Below are positions 2,978 through 20,368 of a stretch of 20,368 bases of DNA, piece after piece. The notes below the pieces were generated by a model. That model saw only the letters and a list, made by a program, of their open reading frames with translations, was not told the origin of the DNA and searched no databases. The stretch's first letter is position 1. Each line of letters opens with the position of its first letter. The stretch is from a virus (taxonomy: Duplodnaviria > Heunggongvirae > Uroviricota > Caudoviricetes), in the IMG/VR virus record IMGVR_UViG_2563366803_000006, one strand, 5' to 3'. Made by a program: the position numbers and the translations under genes.

Positions 2978-3193
2978 ATGAAATCCATGGATAAGTTAAC
3001 AACAGGTGTCGCCTATGGCACCTCCGCAGGCAGTGCTGGCTACTGGTTTTTACAGTTGCTCGATAGAGTCACGCCCTCACAGTGGGCAGCAATAGGTGTG
3101 CTGGGTAGTCTGGTGTTTGGCCTGTTGACGTATCTGACAAATCTTTATTTCAAGATTAAAGAAGATAAGCGTAAGGCTGCACGGGGAGAGTAA
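2978..3193 (+). CDS. Class II holin (pinholin, phage 21 S-like) with dual-start motif
   Basis: 71-aa product [26 protein letters not shown]... with two TM segments and charged C-terminus. Met1-Lys2-Ser3-Met4 dual start. Strong SD GAGGTGGGGG directly upstream of ATG 2978. Recalled similarity to phage 21 S. Confidence 0.85.
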
Positions 3194-3197
3194 TTCA

Positions 3198-3542: not shown

Positions 3543-3600
3543 TTTCACCAGCATATTTTTCTTCCAGTAATACCGCCAGCCACTTGAAAGAATTTTGTTG

Positions 3601-3780
3601 TTACTGGGACCATTTGGGGTTGAGTGATTCAAGCTGGAGCGATGCCAGTGTTGGTTGCATTTGTTCCTTGGGAATTGAGAATGCCAGATATGAAAATGCG
3701 ACAGTAAGGGCATTTACATCATCCCGAAGCTTGGAAATGCAGTCGAGCAACTCCTGTAGAGAAATGGTGCTATTGTCCAT
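3601..3780 (-). CDS. Small hypothetical protein (59 aa), convergent with the upstream unknown gene
   Basis: ATG at 3780-3778 preceded by GAGAGGA SD-like sequence at good spacing; product MDNSTISLQELLDCISKLRDDVNAL... looks helical. Not recognisable from sequence alone. Confidence 0.4.
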   Translation of the reverse strand: MDNSTISLQELLDCISKLRDDVNALTVAFSYLAFSIPKEQMQPTLASLQLESLNPKWSQ

Positions 3781-3885
3781 AAACAATCCTCTCTATTGTA
3801 TTTAACTATTCCTTGCCTGATTCAACAGGCCGGGACAGATAAACATATCCAGGGTTCAGAAACCGATAAATCCTGATAAATATCC

Positions 3886-4383
3886 ATGAACGCAAAAATC
3901 AGATACGGCCTGTCGGCTGCCGTTCTGGCACTGATTGCCGTCGGTGCGCCTGCGCCTGATATTCTCGACCAGTTTCTGGATGAAAAAGAAGGTAACCACA
4001 CAACGGCATACCGCGATGGTTCCGGTATATGGACCATCTGTCGTGGTGCCACAATGGTGGATGGTAAGCCCGTCATACCGGGAATGAGGCTGTCGAAGGA
4101 AAAATGCGACCAGGTTAACGCTATTGAACGTGATAAGGCGCTGGCATGGGTGGAGCGCAATATTAAAGTACCACTGACCGAACCACAGAAAGCGGGTATA
4201 GCGTCATTTTGTCCCTATAACATTGGCCCCGGTAAGTGTTTCCCGTCGACGTTTTATAAGCGGCTGAATGCCGGTGATCGTAAGGGTGCATGCGAGGCGA
4301 TTCGCTGGTGGATAAAAGATGGTGGGCGCGATTGCCGCATACGTTCAAATAACTGCTATGGACAGGTTATTCGTCGTGACTAG
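3886..4383 (+). CDS. SAR endolysin (T4-lysozyme-type muramidase with N-terminal signal-anchor-release domain)
   Basis: 165 aa. N-terminal weakly hydrophobic Ala/Gly-rich segment ([17 protein letters not shown]), then E-x8-D-x5-T catalytic spacing ([16 protein letters not shown]). Sits downstream of a pinholin. Confidence 0.85.
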
Positions 4384-4415
4384 GAAAGCGCATTAGCCTG
4401 TTGGGGGATAGATCA

Positions 4416-4880
4416 GTGAGCAGAGTCGCCGCGATTATTTATGCTCTGGTTATCTGCATCATCGTCTGCCTGTCATGGGCTGTTAATCATTACCGTGATA
4501 ACGCCACCGCCTACAAAGAGCAGCGCGACAAAAATGCCAGAGAACTGAAGCTGGCGAACGCGGCAATTACTGACATGCAGATGCGTCAGCGTGATGTTGC
4601 TGCGCTCGATGCAAAATACACGAAGGAGTTAGCTGATGCGAAAGCTGAAAATGATGCTCTGCGTGATGATGTTGCCGCTGGTCGTCGTCGGTTGCACATC
4701 AAAGCAGTCTGTCAGTCAGTGCGTGAAGCCACCACCGCCTCCGGCGTGGATAATGCAGCCTCCCCCCGACTGGCAGACACCGCTGAACGGGATTATTTCA
4801 CCCTCCGGGAACGACTGGTAATGATGCAGGCCCAACTTGAAGGTGCTCAGCAATACATAACCGAACAGTGTTTAAAGTAA
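4416..4880 (+). CDS. Rz: Rz i-spanin
   Basis: 154 aa from GTG 4416 (SD-like GGGGGA upstream): [30 protein letters not shown]... with N-terminal TM helix and coiled-coil periplasmic domain. Near-identical to lambda Rz as I recall it. Confidence 0.9.
4636..4821 (+). CDS. Rz1: Rz1 o-spanin lipoprotein, embedded in the +1 frame of Rz
   Basis: 61 aa [24 protein letters not shown]... with lipobox (VVGC) and proline-rich mature region; lies entirely within Rz. Confidence 0.85.
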
Positions 4881-5017
4881 AATCTTAACTACAATATGAT
4901 TCATTTTGATGATTGTTTCATAAGGAACAGTGAAGTAAGATCTAAGAGGAGTTAAATTTTATACAGTATAATCATAATATTGCAGCAAGGTGGTTATAAT
5001 TGAAAGAATATTTAGAT

Positions 5018-6475
5018 ATGAATACATCTCATGTAAGAGTTGTTACTCATATGTGTGGGTTCCTGGTTTGGCTCTATAGTCTTTCAATGTTGCCACCAAT
5101 GGTTGTAGCATTGTTTTATAAAGAAAAAAGCCTGTTCGTTTTCTTTATAACTTTCGTTATATTTTTTTGTATTGGTGGCGGAGCGTGGTATACAACTAAG
5201 AAATCTGGCATTCAATTACGTACCCGTGATGGGTTTATTATAATTGTAATGTTTTGGATTTTGTTTTCTGTTATTAGTGCATTCCCTTTATGGATTGACT
5301 CAGAACTTAATTTAACGTTCATTGATGCTCTGTTTGAAGGGGTTTCTGGAATAACAACAACAGGAGCAACTGTAATTGATGATGTTAGTTCATTACCTCG
5401 GGCATATTTGTACTATCGGTCACAGTTAAATTTTATAGGTGGTTTAGGAGTTATTGTTCTGGCGGTTGCTGTATTGCCATTATTGGGTATTGGTGGTGCA
5501 AAGCTTTATCAGTCAGAAATGCCGGGGCCATTTAAGGATGACAAACTCACTCCCCGCCTGGCCGATACGTCACGGACACTGTGGATAACTTATTCTTTAT
5601 TAGGTATTGCTTGTATTGTCTGTTATAGACTTGCAGGAATGCCTTTGTTTGATGCTATTTGTCACGGGATTTCCACAGTTTCGCTTGGTGGTTTCTCAAC
5701 TCATAGCGAGAGTATCGGATATTTTAATAACTATTTGGTTGAGCTGGTGGCTGGTTCTTTTTCCCTGCTATCGGCTTTCAACTTCACTCTTTGGTATATT
5801 GTTATTAGCAGGAAAACGATAAAACCTTTAATCAGAGATATTGAACTTCGTTTCTTTCTGTTAATAGCCTTAGGGGTGATCATTGTTACCTCTTTCCAGG
5901 TCTGGCATATAGGTATGTATGACTTGCATGGAAGTTTTATTCATTCGTTTTTTCTTGCCAGCTCCATGCTCACTGATAATGGTTTAGCTACGCAGGATTA
6001 TGCAAGCTGGCCCACGCACACGATAGTGTTTTTGCTGTTGTCAAGTTTCTTTGGGGGATGTATAGGTTCAACTTGTGGTGGAATTAAGTCACTTCGATTT
6101 CTTATACTTTTCAAACAAAGCAAACACGAGATAAATCAGCTTTCTCATCCCAGAGCGTTGTTGAGTGTAAATGTAGGAGGGAAGATAGTTACAGATCGTG
6201 TAATGAGGTCTGTATGGAGTTTCTTTTTTCTTTATACTCTCTTCACGGTGTTTTTTATACTGGTGTTAAATGGTATGGGATATGATTTTCTTACATCATT
6301 TGCAACAGTGGCTGCATGTATTAATAATATGGGATTAGGTTTTGGGGCTACTGCATCGTCATTCGGAGTGCTTAATGACATTGCAAAATATTTAATGTGC
6401 ATAGCTATGATTCTTGGTCGCCTTGAAATTTATCCTGTTATTATATTGTTTTCAGGTTTTTTTTGGCGCTCCTAA
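5018..6475 (+). CDS. trkG: TrkG/TrkH-family K+ uptake membrane protein (prophage-borne trkG)
   Basis: 485 aa from ATG 5018; multi-pass membrane protein with TrkH-type motifs (GITTTGATV, GIGGAKLYQSEMPGP, GSTCGGIK). Markedly AT-rich coding sequence. Alternative TTG start at 5000 has a better SD (AAGGTGG). Confidence 0.9.
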   Translation: MNTSHVRVVTHMCGFLVWLYSLSMLPPMVVALFYKEKSLFVFFITFVIFFCIGGGAWYTTKKSGIQLRTRDGFIIIVMFWILFSVISAFPLWIDSELNLTFIDALFEGVSGITTTGATVIDDVSSLPRAYLYYRSQLNFIGGLGVIVLAVAVLPLLGIGGAKLYQSEMPGPFKDDKLTPRLADTSRTLWITYSLLGIACIVCYRLAGMPLFDAICHGISTVSLGGFSTHSESIGYFNNYLVELVAGSFSLLSAFNFTLWYIVISRKTIKPLIRDIELRFFLLIALGVIIVTSFQVWHIGMYDLHGSFIHSFFLASSMLTDNGLATQDYASWPTHTIVFLLLSSFFGGCIGSTCGGIKSLRFLILFKQSKHEINQLSHPRALLSVNVGGKIVTDRVMRSVWSFFFLYTLFTVFFILVLNGMGYDFLTSFATVAACINNMGLGFGATASSFGVLNDIAKYLMCIAMILGRLEIYPVIILFSGFFWRS

Positions 6476-6561
6476 TATATGGCTGATTTATAATTGTGAG
6501 TTTAATATTATGTTGACTCACTCATTGATCCAATACTTAACTTTACCAGCAACACCTCCGC

Positions 6562-6597
6562 CCCCAGTAGCACTGGCTGCTGGGGTGCGTTTTATTC
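6562..6597 (+). terminator. Candidate terminator after trkG
   Basis: Inverted repeat CCCCAG (6562-6567) / CTGGGG (6580-6585) with a 12-nt loop, followed by GCGTTTTATT. Confidence 0.3.
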
Positions 6598-6612
6598 ATA
6601 AAGCAAGGATGT

Positions 6613-7404
6613 ATGAGCGAGAAATTAAAGATAGTCTATCGCCCATTACAAGAATTGTCACCGTATGCGCACAACGCCAGGACGCACAGCCCTGAGCAGG
6701 TGGCACAACTGGTAGAAAGTATTAAGCAATTCGGCTGGACTAATCCGGTGCTGATTGACGAAAAGGGCGAAATTATTGCGGGTCACGGTCGTGTTATGGC
6801 GGCTGAAATGCTCAAAATGGATTCTGTTCCGGTCATTGTTCTGTCTGGCCTGACGGATGAGCAGAAAAAGGCGTACCGCCTGGCAGATAATCGCCTGCCG
6901 ATGAATGCTGGCTGGGATGAAGATCTGTTGCGGATGGAGCTGTCGGACCTAATCAATGCTGATTTTGATGTCTCCCTGACAGGCTTCATCCCGACAGAAA
7001 TTGATGAACTGTTGACGGATGTTTTGCCCGGTACAGGAAATGAGGAGGAGCCGTATACGACGAAAATTGATACGCCTGTTTATGAGCCGTCGGGCGGTAA
7101 ACCGGATATCAGTGAACTGTACGACGATACGAAAACGCAGGAGCTGATCAGCCGGATACGTTCGGCTTCCCTTGAGCCTGATATTGAGAAATTCCTCCTG
7201 TGTGCGGCAGAACGTCACACGGTGTTTAATTTCAGCAGAATTGCGGACTATTACGCTCACGCCCCCGCTGAAATTCAGTGTTTTTTCGAGGAGTCGGCGC
7301 TGGTGATCATTGATTATCAGCAGGCTATTGAAAATGGATTTGTCCGGATGACGCAGCGCATGGTGGAGATCATGCATGGTGGTGAGGAGGAGGAATATGC
7401 GTGA
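6613..7404 (+). CDS. ParB-like nuclease (ParB/sulfiredoxin N-terminal) domain protein
   Basis: 263 aa. N-terminal region with ParB-box-like GHGR motif (GEIIAGHGRVMAAEM), acidic C-terminus. SD AAGGA upstream of ATG 6613. Confidence 0.75.
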   Translation: MSEKLKIVYRPLQELSPYAHNARTHSPEQVAQLVESIKQFGWTNPVLIDEKGEIIAGHGRVMAAEMLKMDSVPVIVLSGLTDEQKKAYRLADNRLPMNAGWDEDLLRMELSDLINADFDVSLTGFIPTEIDELLTDVLPGTGNEEEPYTTKIDTPVYEPSGGKPDISELYDDTKTQELISRIRSASLEPDIEKFLLCAAERHTVFNFSRIADYYAHAPAEIQCFFEESALVIIDYQQAIENGFVRMTQRMVEIMHGGEEEEYA

Positions 7405-8329
7405 TGATTTTTGCGCCTTTATTCTGACTCACGGGCGACCGGACAAAGTTCTGACTTACCGGACGTTGCGTCGTGCTGGCTATACCGGGAAAATTTTTAT
7501 CGTTGTTGATGATGAAGATAAGACACGGCATCAGTACATGGCTGAATTTGGTGAACAGGTGCTGGTGTTTTCCAAAACCGATATCGCCAGTCGTTTTGAC
7601 GAAGCCGATAATTTCTGTGACCGCCGCTCAATTTTTTACGCCCGTAATGCCTGTTTCGACCTGGCAAAACTGGTCGGGTGTAAATACTTCATTCAGCTCG
7701 ATGATGATTATCACGAGTTCCAGTTTCGGGTGGATCGCAACTATGACCAGGCCTATTTTCCGATAAGGAAACTGGATGCGATCCTTTCTGAAATGCTGGC
7801 GTACTACGAATCAATACCTGCTCTTTCCATCGCTATGTCGCAGGGCGGGGATTTTCTTGGTGACAATGGCGGCCATGCTTCGTGGGTGAAACGCAAGGCA
7901 ATGAACAGCTTTATCTGTTCGGTTGATCGACCGTTCTCATTCATGGGGCGCATTAACGAGGATGTGAATACGTACACGAATCTCGGTCGCTGTGGTGAAT
8001 TGTTTATGACGATCGGTGCTGTCCAGTTAGGGCAGAAACAGACGCAGAAAAACAGCGGCGGAATGACCGAGCTGTATCTGGATTCCGGAACCTACGTTAA
8101 AAGTTTTTACTCCGTCATGTATGCGCCGTCGTGCGTAAAAATTTCACTGATGGGTGCCAGCCATAAACGCATTCACCATCAGGTCACCTGGAACAACGCT
8201 GCAGTAAAAATCCTTCACGAAAAATACAGGAAGAAGACACCCTGCATATCAATGGGGGTGACAAATGATTCCGTATTCGAAAGTCGAGTCTCTGGCAGCG
8301 TGCCGGATGACTGCACAACAAATCGCTGA
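7397..8329 (+). CDS. Hypothetical protein with GT-A-like nucleotide-sugar transferase signature (DxD-type)
   Basis: ATG 7397 preceded by strong SD GAGGAGGAGGAA and overlapping the ParB-like stop (translational coupling). Alternating beta-strand/acidic pattern (FILTHGRPD, IFIVVDDEDK, YFIQLDDDYHEF). Function inferred only from this pattern. Confidence 0.6.
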   Translation: MRDDFCAFILTHGRPDKVLTYRTLRRAGYTGKIFIVVDDEDKTRHQYMAEFGEQVLVFSKTDIASRFDEADNFCDRRSIFYARNACFDLAKLVGCKYFIQLDDDYHEFQFRVDRNYDQAYFPIRKLDAILSEMLAYYESIPALSIAMSQGGDFLGDNGGHASWVKRKAMNSFICSVDRPFSFMGRINEDVNTYTNLGRCGELFMTIGAVQLGQKQTQKNSGGMTELYLDSGTYVKSFYSVMYAPSCVKISLMGASHKRIHHQVTWNNAAVKILHEKYRKKTPCISMGVTNDSVFESRVSGSVPDDCTTNR

Positions 8330-8516
8330 CGTTCTGGATGTTGATCTGAACCGACTGAAAGAAAATCGGGAAGCAATGACAGATTTTTATGCGGCCATCC
8401 GTAAGGGCAGAGCGAAAGGTGAAGCCGAGTTACGAGCGGCATTGTTTAAGCTTGCCAGAAAAGGGGATGCCTTTGCTCTGCGCGAACTACTCAGGGTGGA
8501 TAAAAATCAGGACTAA
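8307..8516 (+). CDS. Small putative DNA-binding (HTH-like) protein upstream of terS
   Basis: 69 aa MTAQQIADVLDVDLNRLKENRE... helical and basic; start overlaps the upstream gene; stop is 3 nt before the terS ATG and in the same frame. Confidence 0.5.
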   Translation: MTAQQIADVLDVDLNRLKENREAMTDFYAAIRKGRAKGEAELRAALFKLARKGDAFALRELLRVDKNQD

Positions 8517-8519
8517 CTG

Positions 8520-9614
8520 ATGAGCAGACCGGACTGGGGGGCGTTGCAGCAGGAGTATATTGCTGAATACACCCGCTCCGGTATATCTCCGGTGGCATGG
8601 TGTGAAGCAAGGGGACTGAATTACGCAACAGCCCGTCGTTACATCAAAAAAACTCCGAAAAATGCGCAGACAGAAATGCGCAAAACTGCGCAAAAAAGTG
8701 CGCAGAAAAAATCTGCGCAGACTGCACAAAAGCGGAACGAAAAATCTCAGGAAAAAAAGCCAGTATTCGATGCGGGCCTGAATGAGGGCGACGCGGAGGA
8801 ATTTTCGTTCTGTCCCGATGAATTCGGCATTTCTGACCAGCAGGCTAAGTTTGCGATGCTTGTTGCTCAGGGTAAAAAGCCGACAGAGGCGTACCGACTA
8901 GCCGGTTATGAGGGGCAAGGTGCGACAGCTAACAGCAACGCCAGTCGTATGCTTAGAAATGCCAGGGTTTATCGTGCTATCAGCTACTTCCGCAATCAGT
9001 ACCAGAAACGCTATACCGCAGACCTGGATTTACTGGTGAGCCAGTTGATGGTCATTGTCCAGGCCGACCCCAATCAGTTGGCACAATTTCGCCGTGTTAA
9101 CTGCCGTTATTGCTGGGGCGAGAATCATCTCTACCAGTGGCGTGATATTGCAGAATTCGATAAGGCTGCGGCACAGGCCTCCAGAGATGGTAAACCCGAG
9201 CCGGAATATGGAGGCCTCGGCTTTGTTGATAACGCCATACCCAATCCGGATTGCCCGAAGTGCTGCGGTGAGGGAACGGGACAGCTTTATATGGCTGATA
9301 CCACACTGCTTGATGGGGATGCGCGGCAATTATATGCAGGGTCAAAGCTCGGAAAATACGGTGTTGAGATCCTGCTGGAGGATAAGGCTGCCGCCCGGCG
9401 TGAATTGTTGCGTTTGCTTTCTGCTGGCGGGGCATTATGTGCAGATAAGCGGCTACAGGAACTGGAAATTGAACGGCGCAGAATAGAAAACCAGAAGCTG
9501 CACAAAGAGATCGAAACGGTGGAAGATAATGAACATCCCCAGCCTGTGGCGATCAATATTAATGTGGTTGATGCCAGAGTAAGGAGTGATGAAGATGATC
9601 TCTCCGACGCTTAA
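8520..9614 (+). CDS. Terminase small subunit (long form with N-terminal HTH, AQK low-complexity linker, Terminase_2-like core and C-terminal Cys cluster)
   Basis: 364 aa. Core motif AYRLAGYEGQGATANSNASRMLRNARVYRAI typical of small terminase subunits; lies immediately upstream of and overlaps terL; CRYC...CPKCC cysteines at 9102-9266. Confidence 0.7.
   Translation: MSRPDWGALQQEYIAEYTRSGISPVAWCEARGLNYATARRYIKKTPKNAQTEMRKTAQKSAQKKSAQTAQKRNEKSQEKKPVFDAGLNEGDAEEFSFCPDEFGISDQQAKFAMLVAQGKKPTEAYRLAGYEGQGATANSNASRMLRNARVYRAISYFRNQYQKRYTADLDLLVSQLMVIVQADPNQLAQFRRVNCRYCWGENHLYQWRDIAEFDKAAAQASRDGKPEPEYGGLGFVDNAIPNPDCPKCCGEGTGQLYMADTTLLDGDARQLYAGSKLGKYGVEILLEDKAAARRELLRLLSAGGALCADKRLQELEIERRRIENQKLHKEIETVEDNEHPQPVAININVVDARVRSDEDDLSDA
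8663..8728. repeat. Cluster of five TGCGCA hexamers (plus one TGCACA) inside terS
   Basis: Exact TGCGCA at 8663, 8677, 8687, 8699 and 8714, each followed by an A-rich tract; encodes the AQK-repeat linker of TerS. Confidence 0.8.
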
Positions 9615-10896
9615 TGTGCCTCAGGCGCGATTTCTTTCAATGCCCCATAAATTTAAAGCCTATATTGCTGGTTTTGGCTCGGGCAAAACATGGGTTGGGT
9701 GTGGCGGCATATGCAAGGGGATTTGGGAGCATCCAGGTATAAATCAGGGATATTTTGCGCCAACGTATCCCCAAATTCGCGATATTTTTTACCCTACAGT
9801 GGAAGAAGTTGCTGCTGACTGGGGATTGAACGTAAAAATTAATGAGGGAAATAAAGAGGTTCACTTTTATTACGGACGCCAGTATCGGGGAACCACTGTC
9901 TGCAGATCGATGGAGAAGCCACAAACGATCGTCGGTTTCAAAATTGGTAATGCGTTGGTGGATGAACTGGACATTTTGCCGAAGGAAAAAGCCAGAACGG
10001 CGTGGCGCAAGATAATTGCACGTATGCGTTATAAGATTGATGGACTTCGCAACGGTATTGACGTTACAACCACGCCGGAAGGATTCAAATTTGTCTACGA
10101 GCAGTTTGTTAAAGCCGTGCGTGAAAAAACAGAGCTGGCCTCACTGTATGGTCTGGTGCAGGCATCTACTTTCGATAATGAAAAGAACCTGCCAGCAGAT
10201 TACATTCCTTCGCTTCTTGAATCATACCCTCCAGAGCTGATTAAAGCCTATCTTCGAGGACAGTTTACTAACCTGACAAGTGGTACTGTTTACCATCAGT
10301 TTGACCGGAAACTGAATAATTGCGAAGAAGTGGAGCAGCCAGGGGAGCCGATTTATATTGGGATGGATTTTAACGTTGGAAAGATGGCGGGAATCGTCCA
10401 TGTGCTGCGTTTGGGGCTTCCATGTGCGGTAACTGAAATCATCAATGCCTACGATACGCCGGATATGATCCGCATCATTAAAGAACGCTTCTGGCTGTAT
10501 GATGGGAATGATTACCGGAAAGTGAGGGAAATTTATATTTATCCAGATGCTTCCGGGGACTCCAGAAAATCAAGTAACGCAAGTACGACGGATATAGCCC
10601 AGCTTAAGCAGGCTGGTTTTAACGTTGTGGTGAACAGCTCGAACCCGCCAGTAAAAGATCGCGTTAACTCAATGAATGCAATGTTCTGCAATGCCAATGG
10701 TGAGCGTCGCTATAAAGTTAATGTGAAGCGTTGCCCGTTATATGCCGAATCTCTGGAGCAACAGGTCTGGGATGAGAAGGGGGAGCCTGATAAAAAATCT
10801 GGCAATGATCACCCGAATGATGCCGGAGGTTATTTCATCGTTAAGCAATTCCCTATTGTCAAACCGACCGGAAGAGTCACATCACTTCGGATTTAA
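9595..10896 (+). CDS. Terminase large subunit
   Basis: Walker A-like YIAGFGSGKTW near the N-terminus; C-terminal nuclease-like region; SD AAGGAG (9581-9586) 8 nt before ATG 9595. In-frame alternatives at GTG 9586 and ATG 9589. Confidence 0.9.
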   Translation: MISPTLNVPQARFLSMPHKFKAYIAGFGSGKTWVGCGGICKGIWEHPGINQGYFAPTYPQIRDIFYPTVEEVAADWGLNVKINEGNKEVHFYYGRQYRGTTVCRSMEKPQTIVGFKIGNALVDELDILPKEKARTAWRKIIARMRYKIDGLRNGIDVTTTPEGFKFVYEQFVKAVREKTELASLYGLVQASTFDNEKNLPADYIPSLLESYPPELIKAYLRGQFTNLTSGTVYHQFDRKLNNCEEVEQPGEPIYIGMDFNVGKMAGIVHVLRLGLPCAVTEIINAYDTPDMIRIIKERFWLYDGNDYRKVREIYIYPDASGDSRKSSNASTTDIAQLKQAGFNVVVNSSNPPVKDRVNSMNAMFCNANGERRYKVNVKRCPLYAESLEQQVWDEKGEPDKKSGNDHPNDAGGYFIVKQFPIVKPTGRVTSLRI

Positions 10897-10898
10897 TT

Positions 10899-12305
10899 AT
10901 GGCTGATATATCAACACCCAACCTCGACTATAACGATATGCTGGAGGCGTGGGATATTAACGACGCACTGATGGGCGGTACGCTTGAAATGCGCAGGCAG
11001 GGGGAAAATTATCTCCCAAAATGGCCTAACGAAGATGAAGACGCTTATAAAAAACGCCTGTCTGTGGCTACGCTACTTCCTGTGTATGAAGAAAGCATCA
11101 AGCAAAATATTGGGCGCATATTTGCAGAGCCGACAGTATTGAGTGAGGAAACGCCGGCAAAAATCAGGGAATATGCAGAAAATATCGACATGGAGGGGAG
11201 CCGACTGGATGTGTGGGCGCAGCAATTTTTCAGCCTCGCATTTCAGTATGGTGTGGCACATGCGCTGGTGGACTATCCACGAACGGATATGAAAGAGATT
11301 CGGACAAAAGCCGATGAAAACGCGACCGGTGGTCGTCCGTACGTTACGATGCTGAATCCACGCCAGGTTATTGGATGGAAATCGAAAGTTGAAAAAGGGA
11401 AAGTTGTTCTCACTGATTTGCGTATAAAAGAGGTCATCATTATTGATGGTGATGATTTCGGGCAGAAGAAGGTGGAGCAGATCCGCCATATTATGCCCCG
11501 TCGAGTTGAAATTTATCGACGTAGCGAAGGCACTAATGGCGAATCTGTCTGGACGCTTCATGAGTCATGGAATACCAGCCGTGATGATATTCCTCTGGTA
11601 ACACTGTACACGAAGAAAACAGGATTTATGCGTGGTACACCGCCATTGCTTAATCTTGGCTTGCTGAATATCAAGCACTGGCAAAGCCAGAGCGAGCAGG
11701 ACAATATTCTTCATGTTGCCCGCGTTCCATTGCTGGTGGCCTACGGGCTGGACAGGAATGAAGAACTGACGGTTGGTGCATCCACCGCTACGATTTTTGA
11801 GGACAGAACAAAAAATGGCCTCGAATATGTTGAACATAGTGGCGCAGCGATAGAATCTGGCGAAACATCACTTGAGAAGCTGGAAAATCAGATGCGTCAT
11901 GCCGGCGCTAAACTTCTGCGTGCTGAAAATACATCCACCAAATCTGTTGATCAGACTAATGAAGAGCGAATGCAGGAAAACTCGCCGCTTTATACAATGG
12001 CGAACTCCCTCGAAGATGCCCTCGATAATATTCTCCAGATAATGGCGGAATGGATCGGAGAGAGTTGCGGTGGCAATGTGGATGTGCGCACTGAACTGGA
12101 TGTATCTGCCCAGGTGTTTGACTCATCCTCCGCGCTGGCTGTTCAGTCATTGCGTCAGGGCGGTGATATACGTCAGATTGATGCGGTTCGGGTGTTGCAG
12201 GCGTTGAAATTTATCGATCAGGATTCCCGTCCAGAGGAAGTGATCGATGAATTAAAAAATCAGAGTGTAATGCTGATGGAAATCAATGATGCAAACCGTG
12301 AATGA
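10899..12305 (+). CDS. Portal protein
   Basis: 468 aa, directly downstream of terL; size and position in the terS-terL-portal order typical of portal proteins. Confidence 0.8.
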   Translation: MADISTPNLDYNDMLEAWDINDALMGGTLEMRRQGENYLPKWPNEDEDAYKKRLSVATLLPVYEESIKQNIGRIFAEPTVLSEETPAKIREYAENIDMEGSRLDVWAQQFFSLAFQYGVAHALVDYPRTDMKEIRTKADENATGGRPYVTMLNPRQVIGWKSKVEKGKVVLTDLRIKEVIIIDGDDFGQKKVEQIRHIMPRRVEIYRRSEGTNGESVWTLHESWNTSRDDIPLVTLYTKKTGFMRGTPPLLNLGLLNIKHWQSQSEQDNILHVARVPLLVAYGLDRNEELTVGASTATIFEDRTKNGLEYVEHSGAAIESGETSLEKLENQMRHAGAKLLRAENTSTKSVDQTNEERMQENSPLYTMANSLEDALDNILQIMAEWIGESCGGNVDVRTELDVSAQVFDSSSALAVQSLRQGGDIRQIDAVRVLQALKFIDQDSRPEEVIDELKNQSVMLMEINDANRE

Positions 12306-13401
12306 ACGGCTGCGTGATGAATCAATTGCTCATGCAGTCTGGATATCCCGCTATAGCACTGGCGTGGCTGCCAGAATGGTGAAAATACTGAATGACAGCG
12401 ATGCGGAACTTACTGCTCGCCTGCTGATAGCACTGGACAGCCTCGATCCAGGTAGTTTTACCGTTAAGCGCCTGGAGTCACTTCTGGCGAGCGTCAGAGA
12501 GGTTAACCGCACTGCTATTAACAGCATGTTTACCAGTCTCTCCGGAGAGCTGAACGAGCTGGCAATTTATGAGGCTGGTTATCAGTTAAGTCTGTTTGAT
12601 TCTATGCTACCTGATTTTGTTGCTGATGTTCACCCTCTGGTTGGTATCTCTCCTGATGCACTTTATGCCGCTGCAATGGCGCGACCATTCCAGGGACGAC
12701 TGCTCAGTGAGTGGGCCTCAGATCTTGAGGCGGATCGGCTCAGACGCATAACAAATACAGTGCGTCAGGGTTTTTTGCTGGGGGATACCAATGAGCAGAT
12801 CGCAAGAAAAATTCGGGGACATGTCAGTAAGGGATTTCAGGATGGTGCATTGCAGATGAGCCGGGCTAATGCGGCCAGCATTGCAAAAACAGCGGTTGGA
12901 CATCTTGCTGCTACTGCCCGTGAGAGTTTTGCCAGCGCGAATAATGATTTGATTAAGGGTAAGCAATGGTTATCAACGCTTGATAATCGTACTACGCCAC
13001 AATGTCGAATCAGGGATCGCCTCAAATATACGCTGAATAATAAACCTGTAGGTCACAGCGTGCCTTATTTGCAGGGGCCGGGAAAAATTCATTTCTGCTG
13101 CCGCTCAACGGAAACGTTCATTCTGAAATCAGCGAAGGAACTGGGTATTGATGTTCGCGATATTTCCCCGGCTGAGCGGGCCAGCATGGATGGCGTGGTG
13201 GCCGGAGATACAACCTACAGGGAATGGTTTTTGCGTCAGCCTTACACCAGACAAAAACAGATTGTGGGGGAAACCCGAGCAAAGCTGATTCGGGATGGTG
13301 GTATGTCGCCAGATGAATTTTACACCGATAAAGGCGAATGGCTGACGCTGAAGCAGCTCCGTGAGCGTGATGCACAGGTATTCAGAAAAGCAGGGATTTA
13401 A
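12286..13401 (+). CDS. Head morphogenesis / minor head protein (SPP1 gp7 / Mu F-like position)
   Basis: 371 aa, overlaps the portal 3' end by 20 nt; called mainly from gene order (portal, then minor head protein, then scaffold, then capsid). Confidence 0.55.
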   Translation: MMQTVNERLRDESIAHAVWISRYSTGVAARMVKILNDSDAELTARLLIALDSLDPGSFTVKRLESLLASVREVNRTAINSMFTSLSGELNELAIYEAGYQLSLFDSMLPDFVADVHPLVGISPDALYAAAMARPFQGRLLSEWASDLEADRLRRITNTVRQGFLLGDTNEQIARKIRGHVSKGFQDGALQMSRANAASIAKTAVGHLAATARESFASANNDLIKGKQWLSTLDNRTTPQCRIRDRLKYTLNNKPVGHSVPYLQGPGKIHFCCRSTETFILKSAKELGIDVRDISPAERASMDGVVAGDTTYREWFLRQPYTRQKQIVGETRAKLIRDGGMSPDEFYTDKGEWLTLKQLRERDAQVFRKAGI

Positions 13402-13420
13402 ATAAATCATTTATTACAAC

Positions 13421-13447
13421 AGGCTACCTTCGGGTGGCCTTTTTTAT
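13421..13447 (+). terminator. Intrinsic terminator between head morphogenesis and scaffold genes
   Basis: Hairpin AGGCTACC-TTCG-GGTGGCCT (one G-U pair, TTCG tetraloop) followed by TTTTTTATT. Confidence 0.7.
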
Positions 13448-13505
13448 TGCTGCGATCCGGATGGTGAGCAGCGTAACTGTCGGAAGACTTAAACCAGGTA
13501 CTAAT

Positions 13506-14270
13506 ATGAAACTGAAAACGGTCGAGATTAACGGAAAACAATACGCAGAAATTGATACTGCTGGCCTGCCAGTTTATGTGCACGACGATGGTAAAGAAAT
13601 TGGCTTCGATGCACCGCTGGCGACAAAAAAAATTACAGAGCTTAATGGCGAGGCAAAAAATCATCGCCTGGCTAAAGAAGCTGCAGAGGAAAAACTGGCT
13701 AAGTTTGCCGCTATCGAAGACCCGAAGAAGGCGATCGAGGCACTGGAAATGCTGTCAAAAATCGACCAGAAAAAGCTGCTCGATGCGGGACAGGTTGACC
13801 AGGTTAAGGCAGAAATTACGAAAAATTTTCAGCAGCAATTAGATGAAGAAAAGCAACGCTCTCAGATGCTGGAGAAGCAGCTTTACGATTCTATGATTGG
13901 CGGTAGTTTTGCGGGTTCAAAATATATTGCCGATAAAATTGCGATCCCGGCAGATTTATTACAAGCCCGCTTCGGGCAGGCATTCAAAGTGGAAGAAGGG
14001 AGGATCGTTGCTTATGACGCTTCCGGCAACAAAATTTATTCCCGCGCGAAGCCTGGCGAACTGGCGCAGTTTGATGAGGCGCTGGAGTTCCTTGTCGAAA
14101 ATTACCCTCAGAAAGACTACATCCTGAAAGCCAGTGGCAACAATGGCGGCGGCTCCCGTCCGACACAGCATGATATTGGTCAGAAAACGATGAAACGCTC
14201 TGCTTTTGATGCACTGGATGTTGCAGGTAAGCAAAACGCATTGAAAGACGGTATCACAATCGTTGATTAA
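13506..14270 (+). CDS. Scaffolding protein (putative)
   Basis: About 254 aa from ATG 13506 (MKLKTVEINGK...), highly charged and helical; lies between the head morphogenesis and capsid genes. The ORF-track start at 13434 overlaps the terminator hairpin and is less likely. Confidence 0.55.
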   Translation: MKLKTVEINGKQYAEIDTAGLPVYVHDDGKEIGFDAPLATKKITELNGEAKNHRLAKEAAEEKLAKFAAIEDPKKAIEALEMLSKIDQKKLLDAGQVDQVKAEITKNFQQQLDEEKQRSQMLEKQLYDSMIGGSFAGSKYIADKIAIPADLLQARFGQAFKVEEGRIVAYDASGNKIYSRAKPGELAQFDEALEFLVENYPQKDYILKASGNNGGGSRPTQHDIGQKTMKRSAFDALDVAGKQNALKDGITIVD

Positions 14271-14368
14271 CACATTTGTCAGCTTCCGGATGGGAGCTGG
14301 TGTCAGGGCTGGATAGCTCATTACTCCATCTATTCACAATTACGCAAATTTTTAAGGAATATTTAATT

Positions 14369-15508
14369 ATGGCTGGAAATACCCTGACCGGGTTGATCCC
14401 GACTATTTATACCGCCCTGGATGTTGTATCCCGTGAGCAGGTAGGTTTTATCCCTGCGGTAGCAAAAAACGCAAAAGCTGACGCCGCAGCAAAAGATCAG
14501 ACGGTAACCGCGCCAGTTGCGCCTGAGGCGAAAACCGAAGATATCGTACCGGGGCCGTCAGCTCCGAATACCGGTGATCAAAATATTGGCACTGTTGATG
14601 TAAAAATTACTAAATCCAAAATGGCACCGGTTAAATGGAATGGTGAAGAACAACTGGCTCTTGGCCCTTCAGGGACTTACAACACCATTCTGGCTGATCA
14701 GTTCAAGCAGGCTTTTCGCGCCCTTGCAAACGAGGTTGAGGCTGATCTTGGTGCGTTGTATTTCGGTGCTTCCCGCGCCGTGGGAACCGCAGGGACAACG
14801 CCGTTTGGTGTTAAAGATGATCTTTCTGATGCTGCTCTGGCTCGTCAGGTTCTGGAGGATAACGGCGCACCGACAACCGATCTGCAGATGGTGCTTGGCT
14901 CCACTGCCATTGCTAATTTGCGCGGAAAACAGTCTGTATTGTTTAAAGTGAATGAATCCGGCACTGAACAGCTACTGCGTGAGGGCGTGTTGGGGCGTCT
15001 GGAGGGATTCAATATTCACAGTTCGGCAGGTGTGAAACGAGCGCCAAAGGTTGCTGCAACTGGTTATCTCGTGAATGGAGAGAAAAAAGAAGGCGATGTT
15101 CTTATTTCCATTGATACTGGTTCGGGGAGTATTTCTGCAGGTCAGATTGTTACGTTCGCTGGTGATCCGAATCAGTATGTTGTGGCAGCAGCGACCAGCA
15201 ATCTGATTACTCTTGCAGCGCCCGGACTGCGTCAGGATCTGGCCGATGATACTGCCATCACAGTTGTTGGGGCCTTTACTGCAAATATGGCGTTTGATCG
15301 CAACGCGTTTCTGCTGGCATCCCGTACTCCGGCAATGCCGGAAGGTGGCGATAATGCTGATGATGTAATGAATGTTACGGACCCGATTTCAGGGATTACG
15401 TTCCAGATTGCACTGTATCGTCAGTATCGCCAGGTGCGCTATGAAGTTGGACTGGCATGGGGTGTTTCATCAGTGAAGCCGGCACATGGTTGTCTGATTC
15501 TTGGTTAA
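14369..15508 (+). CDS. Major capsid protein (putative)
   Basis: About 379 aa from ATG 14369 (SD AAGGAA upstream), MAGNTLTGLIPTIYTALDVV...; position after scaffold and followed by a terminator; size typical of a major capsid protein. Confidence 0.7.
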   Translation: MAGNTLTGLIPTIYTALDVVSREQVGFIPAVAKNAKADAAAKDQTVTAPVAPEAKTEDIVPGPSAPNTGDQNIGTVDVKITKSKMAPVKWNGEEQLALGPSGTYNTILADQFKQAFRALANEVEADLGALYFGASRAVGTAGTTPFGVKDDLSDAALARQVLEDNGAPTTDLQMVLGSTAIANLRGKQSVLFKVNESGTEQLLREGVLGRLEGFNIHSSAGVKRAPKVAATGYLVNGEKKEGDVLISIDTGSGSISAGQIVTFAGDPNQYVVAAATSNLITLAAPGLRQDLADDTAITVVGAFTANMAFDRNAFLLASRTPAMPEGGDNADDVMNVTDPISGITFQIALYRQYRQVRYEVGLAWGVSSVKPAHGCLILG

Positions 15509-15518
15509 ACATTCAAAC

Positions 15519-15538
15519 GGGGCTTCGGCCCCATTTTT
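15519..15538 (+). terminator. Intrinsic terminator after the capsid gene
   Basis: Hairpin GGGGC-TTCG-GCCCC followed by ATTTTTAA, 11 nt after the capsid stop. Confidence 0.65.
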
Positions 15539-15550
15539 AATGGGGGGCAT

Positions 15551-15727
15551 ATGGCCGGATTAACTAAAGAGCAAAGAGCACAGCGTGAAGCCGCACAAAA
15601 AACGCAAATTGAGTTAGTGGTTATGGTGACCGATTATCAGATGTTTCCCGGCGCACCAACTATCGCTAATGTTCATCCTGATGAAGTTGACAACTGGAAG
15701 GCTATGGGCTGGAAAACTCAGGAGTAA
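15551..15727 (+). CDS. Small hypothetical protein (58 aa) between capsid and connector genes
   Basis: ATG 15551 preceded by a G-rich tract; stop TAA 15725-15727 lies 3 nt before the next gene's ATG. Product MAGLTKEQRAQREAAQKTQIELVVMVTDYQMFPGAPTIANVHPDEVDNWKAMGWKTQE. Below the length cutoff of the supplied ORF track. Confidence 0.4.
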   Translation: MAGLTKEQRAQREAAQKTQIELVVMVTDYQMFPGAPTIANVHPDEVDNWKAMGWKTQE

Positions 15728-15730
15728 CAC

Positions 15731-16126
15731 ATGATCACTTACGTGACCTGTGATGACGTTGATAATGCGTTTGGGAACGCCTGGACGAGTGAGAACGCTA
15801 AAAATAAAGCTGTTTTAATGGCTAATGCCTGGCTTAATGGCTTCAACCTGAAAATTAACCCATCCCGTATTCCGGAAGAGGTAAAACTTGCGGGAGCATA
15901 TGCAGCCAGAATTGCCTCATTCGGTAAGTTGTTTCAGCAGAAAAATGATTCTGGCGTTGTTATCAGTAAAGCCGTGTCGGCTGACGGGGTCAGTGTATCG
16001 AAATCATTTTCTGAGTTGCCAGCAAACAGCACTGCATTGCTTGAACCCGATTTACAGCTTGCGATAGCACTGCTGAAACCGTACGGACTTAGTCGCTCAC
16101 AAGTCAGGGTTGTGAGGGGGGGATAA
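15731..16126 (+). CDS. Head-tail connector/adaptor protein (gp6-like, putative)
   Basis: 131 aa, SD AGGAG upstream; first gene after the capsid in a run of four small tightly packed genes. Confidence 0.5.
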   Translation: MITYVTCDDVDNAFGNAWTSENAKNKAVLMANAWLNGFNLKINPSRIPEEVKLAGAYAARIASFGKLFQQKNDSGVVISKAVSADGVSVSKSFSELPANSTALLEPDLQLAIALLKPYGLSRSQVRVVRGG

Positions 16127-16509
16127 TGGGGCTTCGTGAAGAGATTCAGTCAGAGGTTGCCGCTGCTTTTGATGAGGATTTAGCGGACGCCGTGAGTGAT
16201 TTTTCTGGTTCTTACGTTACGCACCGGCACTGGGATCCTGTGACGGAAACTGGCGGCGAATCCACCGCAATCTATACCGGGCGAGGCGTGTTGACACGTT
16301 ATAAGCTGGGCAGAATTGATGGGATTAATATTTTGCATGGTGACCTTAAATTAACCGCTCTGGTATGCGAGGTTACGGATAAACCAGCTGTCGACCATAT
16401 TATTGAGATTTATGATCCTGTATCAAGGCAGTTACAACGATACGAGGTAATTACAGCAAGTGTAGATCCTTCCGCATCAGTTTACTCTATCCAGTTAAGG
16501 AGAGCGTAA
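16126..16509 (+). CDS. Head-tail joining / head closure protein (putative)
   Basis: 127 aa; start overlaps the previous stop (TAATGG); called from position. Confidence 0.45.
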   Translation: MGLREEIQSEVAAAFDEDLADAVSDFSGSYVTHRHWDPVTETGGESTAIYTGRGVLTRYKLGRIDGINILHGDLKLTALVCEVTDKPAVDHIIEIYDPVSRQLQRYEVITASVDPSASVYSIQLRRA

Positions 16510-16890
16510 ATGGCAAAGGCATGGGATATAGAACCGTCAATATTTGCCGGGATGATTGAGGAAGATGTAGGGCTGAAGATTCGCTACATCGCTATGCAGA
16601 TTCTTACTGCTATTGATATTGCTGCTCCGGTTGATACCGGACGTTTCAGAAATAACAACCTGGTGTCGTTACAGCATCCCGATTTTGGTATATCTGATAA
16701 CGTGGATCCGAACGGTACGATTGCTGTTCAGCGTGGGATCGGGGTTATTTCGAAAGCTGCAAATTACGGGGTTATTTATATCCAGAATAACCTTCCTTAT
16801 GCAGAGGCTCTTGAAAACGGTCATTCACAACAAGCGCCAACTGGCGTGTATGCCAACGCTTTTCATGGTGTTTTACAGGCTTACAAATGA
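16510..16890 (+). CDS. Neck/tail component, HK97 gp10-like (putative)
   Basis: 126 aa; position and size; gp10-like assignment is recalled family resemblance, not a search result. Confidence 0.5.
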   Translation: MAKAWDIEPSIFAGMIEEDVGLKIRYIAMQILTAIDIAAPVDTGRFRNNNLVSLQHPDFGISDNVDPNGTIAVQRGIGVISKAANYGVIYIQNNLPYAEALENGHSQQAPTGVYANAFHGVLQAYK

Positions 16891-17279
16891 AGTTTACTGA
16901 AATCAGAAATACGGTTATTTCCAGAATGACGGCACAGACGATTATTGATGGAAAAGACGTATTGTATCCGAACGGGCCAACGTTCGATCCTTCCGGTAAG
17001 TTAATCTGGGCGCGGTTAAGTAATATTCCCGGGCAGGCTGGAGTTAATGAAATTGGCGCGGGGCCGGTTGTTTATCGCACGGGGATAATCATTATTCAGT
17101 TATTTGTCCCCGCAGGTTCTGGTTCAAAACTCATTACTGAGACAGCCGATAAATTGCGGGAACTGTTTGAGTTTCAGGATGACGATCGTCTCAGTTACCA
17201 GGCTGTTTCCTCAATAGCCGTCGGCGAAAAGAATGGCTGGTTCCAGCTTAATCTTCAAATTCCATATCGCGCGCTCTAG
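16887..17279 (+). CDS. Tail completion / tail terminator protein (putative)
   Basis: 130 aa; ATGA start-stop overlap with the previous gene; immediately upstream of the major tail protein gene. Confidence 0.45.
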   Translation: MKFTEIRNTVISRMTAQTIIDGKDVLYPNGPTFDPSGKLIWARLSNIPGQAGVNEIGAGPVVYRTGIIIIQLFVPAGSGSKLITETADKLRELFEFQDDDRLSYQAVSSIAVGEKNGWFQLNLQIPYRAL

Positions 17280-17305
17280 CGCAATTAATGACATAGGAGG
17301 CTCCT

Positions 17306-18268
17306 GTGAGTTCAGGTGCAAAGGTTATCTCGGCATTTATCCGGGAGACGGTTGCAGGCACTACGCCAGCAAGTGGTGACTGGAGTTTATTAAAACGCAC
17401 AAGCTGGGGAGTAAAACCCACCCAGAATAAAGGCGAAAATAATGAGATTGGTGGCTCCCGGATGGCTCAGGGGGCGACGCCTGGCACTGTGGATGTCGGC
17501 GGTGATGTTGGTACCAAATTTCGCTGGGGTCAACATGATGATTTTCTTGCATCCTGTTTCGGCGCGGAATGGTCAGGCGATTCTCTGACAATGGGGAATG
17601 AGCGAATAACATTTTCTCTGGCGACCTATGCGTCCGATGTCGGAATTGCCTCTGTCGTCAGAGGAGCGCAGGTTGGCTCATGGAAAATGCAGATCCCTAA
17701 CGACGGCGATATTACAGCGACCGTAACCTTTGCCGGACTGGACTGGGAATCAAAGGCCGATGATACGAATTTTATCAAAGGCGAACCTGTGGATAGTGCA
17801 GGAAAGCTACGTTATTCGTTTAAGGAGGTTTCAGCAGTAAGCCTGAATGGTGTTGCCGGAGGTAACGGTTTTTGTATCGACAGTTTTGATATTCAGTTCG
17901 ATAACAAACTCCAGACACAGCGTTGTATCGGGACTGGCTCGCCTTATGCAGGAGCAAATATTCCGACTACTTTTACACCGTCCGGTACGGTGACGCTTTC
18001 ATGGTCTAAAGCCGCGTGGGAAATCTGGAGTAAAACACTGACTGGAGAAACAGTTCCGTTCAGCTTCACGCTTTCGAATGGAGAGGGGGCATACACTTTC
18101 AGTTTCCCGAAGGTTCAGGTGTCAGGTGAATGGCCTGATGGGGGTAATAGCGACATTATCCAGGTTCAATTGAGCATTACCGCAGCAGATGAAGCACCTA
18201 CGATAACCAGAAAAAAAAATTCCCCGGCTGCCGTGATCGCAAAAGCCAGTGCTGAGGCGATTAGTTGA
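17306..18268 (+). CDS. Major tail (tube) protein (putative)
   Basis: 320 aa from GTG 17306 with strong SD AGGAGG upstream; lies immediately before the tail assembly chaperone with frameshift site, as expected for a siphovirus-type tail tube gene. Confidence 0.55.
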   Translation: MSSGAKVISAFIRETVAGTTPASGDWSLLKRTSWGVKPTQNKGENNEIGGSRMAQGATPGTVDVGGDVGTKFRWGQHDDFLASCFGAEWSGDSLTMGNERITFSLATYASDVGIASVVRGAQVGSWKMQIPNDGDITATVTFAGLDWESKADDTNFIKGEPVDSAGKLRYSFKEVSAVSLNGVAGGNGFCIDSFDIQFDNKLQTQRCIGTGSPYAGANIPTTFTPSGTVTLSWSKAAWEIWSKTLTGETVPFSFTLSNGEGAYTFSFPKVQVSGEWPDGGNSDIIQVQLSITAADEAPTITRKKNSPAAVIAKASAEAIS

Positions 18269-18316
18269 TTTTCCGTTATTCCTCCTGTGGTACTGCCCTA
18301 CAGGGGGACGCATTGA

Positions 18317-18778
18317 ATGAGGTTATGGATGTTTATTCTTAATCAGAAAATTATCATTGGTGGAGAACGCTGGTTTACGCCAATGAAGGACTTAAAACCT
18401 GTAGACGGGTTAAAACTGTTGGTGGCAAGCAGCGATAACGATCAGTATCGCTCCCGTAATGCATTAATCCGTCGCCACATTGAGAAAATGGATGCCAGTT
18501 TGCACGTCGGAACGAAGGAGTTTGATATTTCAAAGGTTTCCGAGGTGGATTCTGTTGATGATTTACTCATTGATAATGCCGCTCGTTATCTGCTGAAAGA
18601 CTGGAAAGGGGTTGGTGAACTGGTTAATGGTGTTGAGGTTGCACTGGAATATACGGCAGAACGAGGGATCGCGCTGCTCAAGCAGAATCCAGAGTTGTAC
18701 TGGCAGATCCTTGCAGAAGCAGCCAGCATCGCCCAGGGTAAAGAGCAGCAGAAGCAGGATACGATAAAAAAGCCATAG
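18317..18778 (+). CDS. Tail assembly chaperone (gpG-like)
   Basis: 153-codon ORF ending ...TIKKP with slippery heptamer A_AAA_AAG (18766-18772) 4 nt before the stop. In-frame alternative starts at 18329 and 18383. Confidence 0.6.
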   Translation: MRLWMFILNQKIIIGGERWFTPMKDLKPVDGLKLLVASSDNDQYRSRNALIRRHIEKMDASLHVGTKEFDISKVSEVDSVDDLLIDNAARYLLKDWKGVGELVNGVEVALEYTAERGIALLKQNPELYWQILAEAASIAQGKEQQKQDTIKKP

Positions 18779-18935
18779 CTGCCCAGCGGTGGTTATCGGA
18801 GTTCGGGGGAGAAAGGGGGGAAAAGGCAAGATGGAAGCGAGAAAAACTCAGGTTGCCACCGATACCGGAACCAGAAATAGACCCGGTGCTTAAGGAGTTG
18901 TTGTACGCCTATTCGGTAATATCCCGTGCCCGACG
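18766..18935 (+). pseudogene. -1 programmed frameshift extension of the tail assembly chaperone (gpGT-like), truncated by IS1 copy 2
   Basis: From the slippery site the -1 frame is open for about 55 codons (KKAIAAQRWLSEFGGERGEKARWKREKLRLPPIPEPEIDPVLKELLYAYSVISRARR) right up to the IS1 boundary at 18935. Confidence 0.55.
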
Positions 18936-18990
18936 GGTGATGCTGCCAACTTACTGATTTAGTGTATGATGGTGTTTTTGAGGTGCTCCA

Positions 18991-19266
18991 GTGGCTTCTG
19001 TTTCTATCAGCTGTCCCTCCTGTTCAGCTACTGACGGGGTGGTGCGTAACGGCAAAAGCACCGCCGGACATCAGCGCTATCTCTGCTCTCACTGCCGTAA
19101 AACATGGCAACTGCAGTTCACTTACACCGCTTCTCAACCCGGTACGCACCAGAAAATCATAGATATGGCCATGAATGGCGTTGGATGCCGGGCAACAGCC
19201 CGCATTATGGGCGTTGGCCTCAACACGATTTTACGTCACTTAAAAAACTCAGGCCGCAGTCGGTAA
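18991..19266 (+). CDS. insA: IS1 InsA
   Basis: 91-aa product identical to copy 1 InsA; both nucleotide differences are synonymous in this frame. Confidence 0.95.
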
Positions 19267-19688
19267 CCTCGCGCATACAGCCGGGCAGTGACGTCATCGT
19301 CTGCGCGGAAATGGACGAACAGTGGGGCTATGTCGGGGCTAAATCGCGCCAGCGCTGGCTGTTTTACGCGTATGACAGGCTCCGGAAGACGGTTGTTGCG
19401 CACGTATTCGGTGAACGCACTATGGCGACGCTGGGGCGTCTTATGAGCCTGCTGTCACCCTTTGACGTGGTGATATGGATGACGGATGGCTGGCCGCTGT
19501 ATGAATCCCGCCTGAAGGGAAAGCTGCACGTAATCAGCAAGCGATATACGCAGCGAATTGAGCGGCATAACCTGAATCTGAGGCAGCACCTGGCACGGCT
19601 GGGACGGAAGTCGCTGTCGTTTTCAAAATCGGTGGAGCTGCATGACAAAGTCATCGGGCATTATCTGAACATAAAACACTATCAATAA
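19185..19688 (+). CDS. insB: IS1 InsB frame (InsAB' by -1 frameshift)
   Basis: Corresponds to copy 1 coordinates 1215-1718; A6C motif at 19242-19248. In this copy the B frame stays open further upstream (to 19104) because TGA is replaced by AGA. Confidence 0.9.
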
Positions 19689-19703
19689 GTTGGAGTCATT
19701 ACC

Positions 19704-20368
19704 CTGTTGATTTAACCCTTACAAAACAATCAGGGACTGGCAATCGTTTTGTTTTACAGAACTCAGGTAATGCAGAACTACCGTTTTCTGTCAGGGTGTG
19801 GGGTTCCAGTACTCGACAAAACGTTTTTGAGGTTGGCACGTCTGCTGCGTATCTGTTTTATGCGCAAAAAACGTCAGCAGGCCAGTTGTTTGATGTAAAT
19901 GGCGCTATTAATTGCACAACGCTGAATCAGTCATCAGACCGCGACCTTAAAGACGATATTCTCGTTATCAGCGACGCGACGAAAGCAATCCGTAAAATGA
20001 ACGGATACACCTACACGCTCAGGGAAAACGGGATGCCTTATGCTGGCGTTATTGCACAGGAAGTAATGGAGGCGATACCAGAAGCTGTGGGATCGTTTAC
20101 TCATTATGGTGAAGAGTTGCAAGGTCCGACCGTTGACGGCAACGAGCTACGCGAAGAAACGCGCTATCTTAATGTTGACTACGCCGCCGTGACGGGCTTA
20201 CTTGTTCAGTTCGCCCGTGAAACAGATGATCGCGTTACCGCGCTGGAAGAGGAAAACACAACGCTACGTCAAAATCTGGCAACAGCAGACACCCGGATCA
20301 GCACTCTGGAAAATCAGGTAAGCGAACTGGTTGCACTTGTCCGGCAGTTAACAGGAAGCGAACATTGA
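19704..20368 (+). pseudogene. 3' fragment of a tail fibre/tailspike gene with C-terminal intramolecular chaperone (peptidase S74-type) domain
   Basis: Frame open from the IS1 boundary (codons from 19706) to TGA at 20366-20368. Translation contains SDRDLKDDI...YTYTL...GVIAQEVMEAIPEAV, matching the autoproteolytic chaperone domain pattern, then a coiled-coil tail. No start codon context at the 5' end. Confidence 0.7.

Follow-up and report, generated by a model that had tools for sequence, protein, structure and literature searches.

The stretch of DNA analysed here, 20,368 nucleotides long and referred to below as the window, ends in an open frame that begins where an insertion sequence, IS1, stops. 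Is this frame a gene in its own right or a piece of one, and how did it come to lie against IS1? Nucleotide and protein identity to E. coli fibres places the interval 19704..20368 (plus strand) as the 3'-terminal 665 bp of a side tail fibre gene (stf), a pseudogene truncated at its 5' end. It very probably represents the final 220 codons of stf from a lambdoid prophage of the Rac/Qin type, left behind as a non-functional remnant.

The extent of the stf fragment and its full-length relatives

Homology to tail fibre genes begins precisely at 19704, and IS1 copy 2 ends at 19703, thus the fragment does start directly at the IS1 boundary, as a sequence-only reading of the window had proposed. Comparison with intact genes indicates that the bases 19704-19705 are the final two of a Thr codon (ACT) that was split by IS1. 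The codon phase is therefore counted from 19706, and the frame that begins at 19704 has many stops. The fragment consists of two bases of the split codon, 220 sense codons and a TGA at 20366-20368, which are the final three bases of the window. The sequence-only reading counted 221 codons open from 19704 to the window end; the open frame is real, but its phase and count change as given here and it is closed by the native stop. Because this TGA lies inside the window, the 3' end of the gene is complete and the frame does not run off the end.

The fragment is 100% identical in nucleotide sequence to annotated fibre genes in at least 23 complete E. coli genome records among the matches listed, a number of which are repeat sequencings or derivatives of the strains HS and EC0880B. 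At least 80% of the 665 bp is present in 679 of the 5,426 complete E. coli genomes, and the median number of places that match this 3' end is 2 per E. coli genome. Among phages, mEp460 (94.3% nucleotide identity) and Ayreon (92.8%) match best with their side tail fibre genes. PHROG 6578, 'tail fiber protein', matches with an E value of 1.3e-107, and the match is confined to the final 209 of 1210 profile positions, so the fragment encodes the C-terminal piece of a long protein.

Full-length genes were found in relatives, as had been asked for in order to define the missing 5' portion. In E. coli HS the fibre is ECHS_RS26290 (WP_000290867.1), a protein of 1258 residues of which the fragment corresponds to residues 1039-1258 with 100% identity. 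In FDAARGOS_1058 it is I6I15_RS17720, with 1091 residues, and the fragment corresponds to residues 872-1091. The protein is identical in this case as well, and the nucleotide identity to this stf at the Rac site is 99.85%, a difference of one nucleotide. The order of a distal fibre domain, an S74 core and a coiled coil is shared by the fragment and the C-termini of Stf of HS, FDAARGOS_1058 and mEp460. Unlike full-length Stf, the fragment lacks residues 1-871 in FDAARGOS numbering, or 1-1038 in HS numbering, and with them the PF08400 domain, the shaft, the start codon and the promoter.

Which end of the fibre has been lost? Both full-length fibres, that of HS and that of FDAARGOS_1058, carry PF08400 ('prophage tail fibre N-terminal') at residues 1-134 and S74 near the C-terminus. 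The PF08400 domain attaches the fibre to the tail. Its position at the N-terminus of the relatives means that the lost end comprised the tail attachment and the shaft and not the receptor-binding part. The N-terminal portion is indeed absent, but it had been described as receptor-binding and this description does not hold. The receptor-facing end is the distal one, which lies directly upstream of the S74 serine, and of it the last 76 residues are retained. A tblastn search did not find the PF08400 region in any part of the window, and no further piece of stf is present anywhere in the window.

The 5' part of the gene is gone as had been stated, but the loss is far larger than one gene and takes in about 12.75 kb of tail genes. 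Aligned with the prophage of FDAARGOS_1058, the window forms two collinear blocks, 1733-18945 and 19704-20368, and the 12,754 bp that lie between these blocks in FDAARGOS_1058 are absent from the window. They hold the rest of a small ORF, the tape measure, M, L, K, I, J, lom and stf codons 1-871. In the relatives stf sits after J and lom in the tail operon. In the window J and lom are absent, and IS1 precedes the fragment.

In relatives the fibre gene that ends in S74 is followed by a short remnant of tfa, the N-terminus of which is missing (L001 6714-6839, L002 6182-6316, L009 5714-5839). The position of this remnant behind an S74-ended fibre suggests that recombination exchanged a fibre end dependent on tfa for an S74 module that brings its own chaperone.

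Domains of the encoded C-terminal piece

The distal end of the mature fibre is encoded by 19706..19933 (plus strand). These 76 residues are related to a domain of T4 gp34. Residues 22-77 of the fragment match the PDB entries 5nxf, 4uxe and 5nxh, all from the T4 proximal fibre protein gp34, and a Foldseek search with the predicted model gave the gp34 structures 4uxe, 5nxf, 5nxh and 4uxg with E values of 1.5e-3 to 4.9e-3.

The core of the Peptidase_S74 intramolecular chaperone follows at 19934..20089 (plus strand), residues 77-128. The match to Pfam PF13884 has an E value of 1e-12 and a score of 48.6 bits against a gathering cut-off of 22, and it covers positions 1-57 of the 58 in the profile. 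The pattern from which the domain had first been recognised is present, with SDRDLKDDI at residues 77-85 (19934-19960) and GVIAQEV at residues 114-120. The domain had been placed at the IS1 boundary; its core starts 230 nucleotides inside the fragment. Ser77 (codon 19934-19936) and Lys82 (codon 19949-19951) form an intact pair, and in an alignment of 18 homologues the residues S77, D78, L81 and K82 of SDRDLK are at least 90% conserved.

A profile built from this alignment matches 6f45, the tip of the long tail fibre of phage S16 including its chaperone domain, with an E value of 5.6e-14, and the SDRDLK motif aligns with the SSDRRIKKDI stretch of that structure. The same profile matches 7dc3, the auto-processing domain of myelin regulatory factor, with an E value of 7.2e-06. 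The fragment is alike to the chaperone domains of the K1F endosialidase (3GW6), S16 gp37 (6F45) and MYRF ICA (7DC3) in its S-D-x-x-L-K motif, with Ser and Lys five residues apart, and as in these structures a C-terminal helix comes after the core. It differs from the solved domains in that sequence identity to them is low and the domain has no fibre left to fold.

The long C-terminal helix, a predicted coiled coil, is encoded by 20180..20353 (plus strand). The predicted helix spans residues 159-216, with block means of pLDDT over ten residues of 86-94 across residues 171-210, and coiled-coil Pfam profiles match residues 170-218. A coiled coil after S74 had been noticed from the sequence and these matches bear it out. 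The AlphaFold model of the monomer has a mean pLDDT of 67 and a pTM of 0.38. A fold search with this low-confidence monomer model returned 3gw6 and 3gud at E values of 0.3-3, which are not significant; the expected form of the protein is an intertwined trimer.

The chaperone domain is said, in work of 2007 by Schwarzer and of 2010 by Schulz, to work within its own chain and to need trimerisation. The S74 domain catalyses a trimerisation-dependent auto-proteolysis that uses a conserved Ser and Lys (PMC11058221). In an intact stf product the S74 chaperone would drive the folding of the trimer and would then release itself at the conserved serine by means of the Ser/Lys pair. The fragment is a piece of a member of the S74 family and not a working member, as the fibre part is down to 76 residues.

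IS1 junctions in a Rac-type prophage

The rest of the window belongs to a prophage of the Rac type. At its left end, 1..965 on the minus strand holds the 3' part of intR, the Rac integrase gene, with an ORF at 1..930 on the same strand. Over 964 bp it matches the annotated intR of many E. coli genomes with 100% identity, and its 5' end is cut by IS1 copy 1. The late region occupies 1734..18935 (plus strand) and along its whole length shows 99.3-99.8% identity to prophages of the Rac type in complete E. coli genomes. It contains two tRNAs, lysis genes, trkG, and genes for terminase, portal, head, tail tube and tail assembly chaperone. The last feature before IS1 copy 2 is a small ORF (PHROG 1189; 18853..18935, plus strand), of which the first 83 of 234 nucleotides remain. 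It is 77 residues long when intact and sits between the tail assembly chaperone and tape-measure genes, and it is collinear with I6I15_RS17760 of FDAARGOS_1058 until ...CCCGTGCCCGACG, where IS1 copy 2 cuts it.

Several features of this region can be noted in their own right. The tRNA genes, tRNA-Thr(TGT) and tRNA-Gly(TCC), lie at 2048-2201, a short way ahead of the lysis genes. Within the late operon, trkG (5000-6475), which encodes a potassium transporter, is a cargo gene of host type and lies between the lysis and terminase genes, as it does in other Rac-type prophages. The window begins exactly at the stop of intR and ends exactly at the stop of stf, as though a prophage predictor had trimmed it to whole gene ends.

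IS1 copy 2 occupies 18936..19703 (plus strand). It is 768 bp long and IS1A-like, with the IS1 terminal repeats in its ends GGTGATGCTGCC...GGAGTCATTACC, the ORFs for insA/insB' at 18991-19266 and 19104-19688, and 99.5% identity to the annotated IS1A of strain T28R. Its flanks read TGCCCGACG, IS1, CTGTTGATT, and there is no 9-bp target-site duplication. A BLAST alignment at the left junction extends 10 bases into IS1 and could be taken for microhomology; this is a gapped chance extension and the break lies after ...CCCGACG. In T28R, an IS1 lies 637 bp to the right of the window junction (L006 3788-4555), and the duplication expected of a simple insertion, ACAGAGGAA, is present there.

IS1 copy 1 lies at 966..1733 (plus strand). 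It too is 768 bp long, has flanks that read TAATTTTTG, IS1, GCAAAGCTG, shows no target-site duplication and marks a second deletion junction. The two copies differ by 2 nucleotides, have equal orientation and are separated by 17 kb. As neither has a 9-bp target duplication, both are rearrangement junctions. FDAARGOS_1058 has a complete Rac-type prophage that runs from intR, adjoining ttcA, through to stf. Compared with it, the window sequence resumes to the right of IS1 copy 1 at 45 bp beyond the DUF1133 gene, and the 5' end of intR is gone together with about 16 kb of early genes (xisR, recET, kilR, racR, ydaS-V and others), a length estimated from the annotation coordinates of FDAARGOS_1058 and not from an alignment. 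Because this second junction removed the 5' end of the integrase gene and the early region, the element as a whole is defective, and the window is a doubly deleted, defective Rac-type prophage.

The exact junction of IS1 and stf had no match in the 5,426 complete E. coli genomes, the GTDB species representatives, IMG/VR or the JGI metagenomes, and an IS1 at this site of stf was not found in the set of complete E. coli genomes. Similar junctions lie close to the left breakpoint in other strains. In HCP6S3_I1 an IS1 of another isoform, with about 94% identity, sits 2 bp right of the window junction next to a larger deletion that reaches ydfK, and in GPEC1446 an IS1 sits 21 bp left of the window junction and the deletion takes the tape measure as far as gene M. 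A shared ancestral IS1 was considered for these strains and rejected, as the junctions are off by 2 bp and 21 bp and the right ends are others; right ends that differ from that of the window point to independent events. IS1 deletion junctions thus cluster in the small ORF of Rac-type prophages between the tail assembly chaperone and tape-measure genes (window 18915-18937, L005 4153, L008 2630). The cluster could be a hot spot or could reflect serial adjacent deletions. A look at the literature on Rac, IS1 and tail fibre deletions found nothing specific.

The remnant resembles other lambdoid prophages of E. coli that have decayed through insertion sequences, namely the K-12 Rac remnant and the prophages of strain 127, HCP6S3_I1 and GPEC1446. 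In these a truncated tail or fibre gene likewise borders on an insertion sequence, genes for morphogenesis have gone and the deletion junctions lack a target duplication. The stf of strain 127, for example, is split by IS2 and is labelled by PGAP as a pseudogene, 'missing N-terminus'. The breakpoints of the window are different from those of the other decayed prophages and unique to it.

Origin, expression and meaning of the remnant

How did the fragment reach its present position? An IS1-associated rearrangement probably joined the right end of IS1 to stf within one of its Thr codons. The likeliest route would be an adjacent deletion by IS1, or a recombination between two IS1 copies. In an adjacent deletion a resident IS1 would have transposed intramolecularly into stf, which would join the small ORF to stf codon 871/872. 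Both routes would leave one IS1 without a duplication and look the same here. By either of them the fibre would have lost its tail-attachment domain and its shaft, and the prophage every tail gene from the tape measure up to and including lom. The fragment has no mutations relative to intact alleles, and the event is therefore recent.

There is a Rac-type prophage that has the two parts in cis and arranges them in the same order and orientation, thus a local deletion needs only one event, and an origin of the fragment within the same prophage is the parsimonious reading. Strain 1428, which at 99.8% comes closest to the late region, carries another fibre module, and an in-cis origin is therefore parsimonious and not proven. 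Strain 1428 was considered as a test of the prophage from which the fibre end came, and owing to its different module it is uninformative. It encodes a Stf of 791 residues followed by a separate S74-ended fibre protein of 346 residues (L010 5619-6659). The latter appears to belong to a family of 346-residue proteins, about 55% identical to the fragment, that is very common in E. coli.

Could the 3' end have come from another prophage instead? Recombination between IS1 copies of two prophages, by an inversion or a large deletion, would bring in the end of a fibre gene from, for example, a prophage at the Qin or ydfJ site, and the 5' part would then have been displaced and not lost. Identity is 100% to the fibre genes that HS and strain 127 carry at the Qin site, as against 99.85% to the Rac-site copy of FDAARGOS_1058, but one nucleotide in 665 cannot discriminate between the two origins. 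The other fibre module of strain 1428, the lack of a target duplication at both IS1 copies and the two places in the median E. coli genome that match the 665-bp end all fit such an exchange. Set against them are the known Rac-type prophage with both parts in cis and the single local event that it requires, and an origin in a second prophage is unlikely. The window ends at the stf stop, and the flank that tells a Rac-site gene from one of another prophage lies beyond this end; at the Rac site of relatives it consists of a tfa fragment and then sitDCBA or uspF/ompN. A different kind of doubt concerns the assembly. If the small ORF and stf had each received an IS1 of its own and the tail genes between them were still complete, a collapse at the 768-bp repeat would join the left junction of one copy to the right junction of the other without a duplication, which is the pattern seen; repeats of this kind are a classic cause of collapse, and the junction pair is unique to the window sequence. 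However, two IS1 copies that differ by 2 nucleotides and lie 17 kb apart were retained, which suggests that the assembly could tell repeats apart, complete genomes contain real IS1 deletion junctions of this type 2-21 bp away, and the E. coli genome set has no IS1 at the stf site that this explanation calls for. A collapsed assembly is very unlikely. These alternative origins leave the main conclusion unchanged; under each of them the fragment is a non-functional, truncated part of a gene whose kind is well known.

Is the fragment expressed? Followed upstream into IS1, the stf frame meets no stop for 20 codons until a TGA at 19643-19645, and these IS1-derived codons contain no ATG, GTG or TTG. 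The earlier observation that the junction offers no start context is thus upheld. The first in-frame start is a GTG at 19796, directly after CTGTCAGG, and it has no usable spacing to a ribosome-binding site. A consensus scan of 19300-20368 found no sigma-70-like promoter site. The significant S74 match and the failure to find an upstream start or promoter leave the sequence-only reading of a broken fibre gene standing. No fibre can be made from the fragment, because the promoter, the start and the 870-1040 residues of the N-terminal part are all missing. To judge from these signals the fragment is most likely silent.

It might still be asked whether an internal start (GTG 19796 or ATG 19997, 20033 or 20066) has made this an independent small gene for a free chaperone or a mini-fibre. 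Gene callers do report a 190-residue ORF from the GTG where the upstream part is disrupted, AGGAAG precedes the ATG at 20066, and the complete fibre proteins of 346 residues have a related C-terminus. The 346-residue proteins, however, own an N-terminal part of 150 residues that is absent from the fragment, and the two contigs with the 190-residue ORF are full-length genes with frameshifts of one nucleotide in a homopolymer. The protein matches to this ORF in these two Logan contigs had been considered as IS1 junctions, and this was rejected because they are full-length fibre genes in which a G-run reads GGGG as against GGG (L003 ~1900, L004 ~420); the G-run differences are probably sequencing errors. 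Moreover, a promoter-like site and a ribosome-binding site at the first start are lacking, the fragment is identical to the interior of a long gene, and the S74 domain acts in its own chain, with an auto-proteolysis that depends on trimerisation (PMC11058221). An independent gene is extremely improbable. It is equally hard to credit that the fragment is expressed weakly, by read-through from IS1 or from an internal start, and that a free S74/coiled-coil trimer assembles together with the fibres of incoming phages and poisons them. If this were true the fragment would be a decoy for superinfection interference against lambdoid phages that carry the same module.

The stf remnant is a product of ordinary prophage decay, already known in kind. 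Its correct annotation is a pseudogene, a tail fibre without its N-terminus, and not a peptidase or a tail fibre gene. The element, for its part, should count as a defective prophage, unable to build tails, to excise or to replicate. As the fragment is identical to live alleles, an incoming lambdoid phage could in principle recombine it into its own genome. The window adds another case of insertion sequences dismantling Rac-type prophages.
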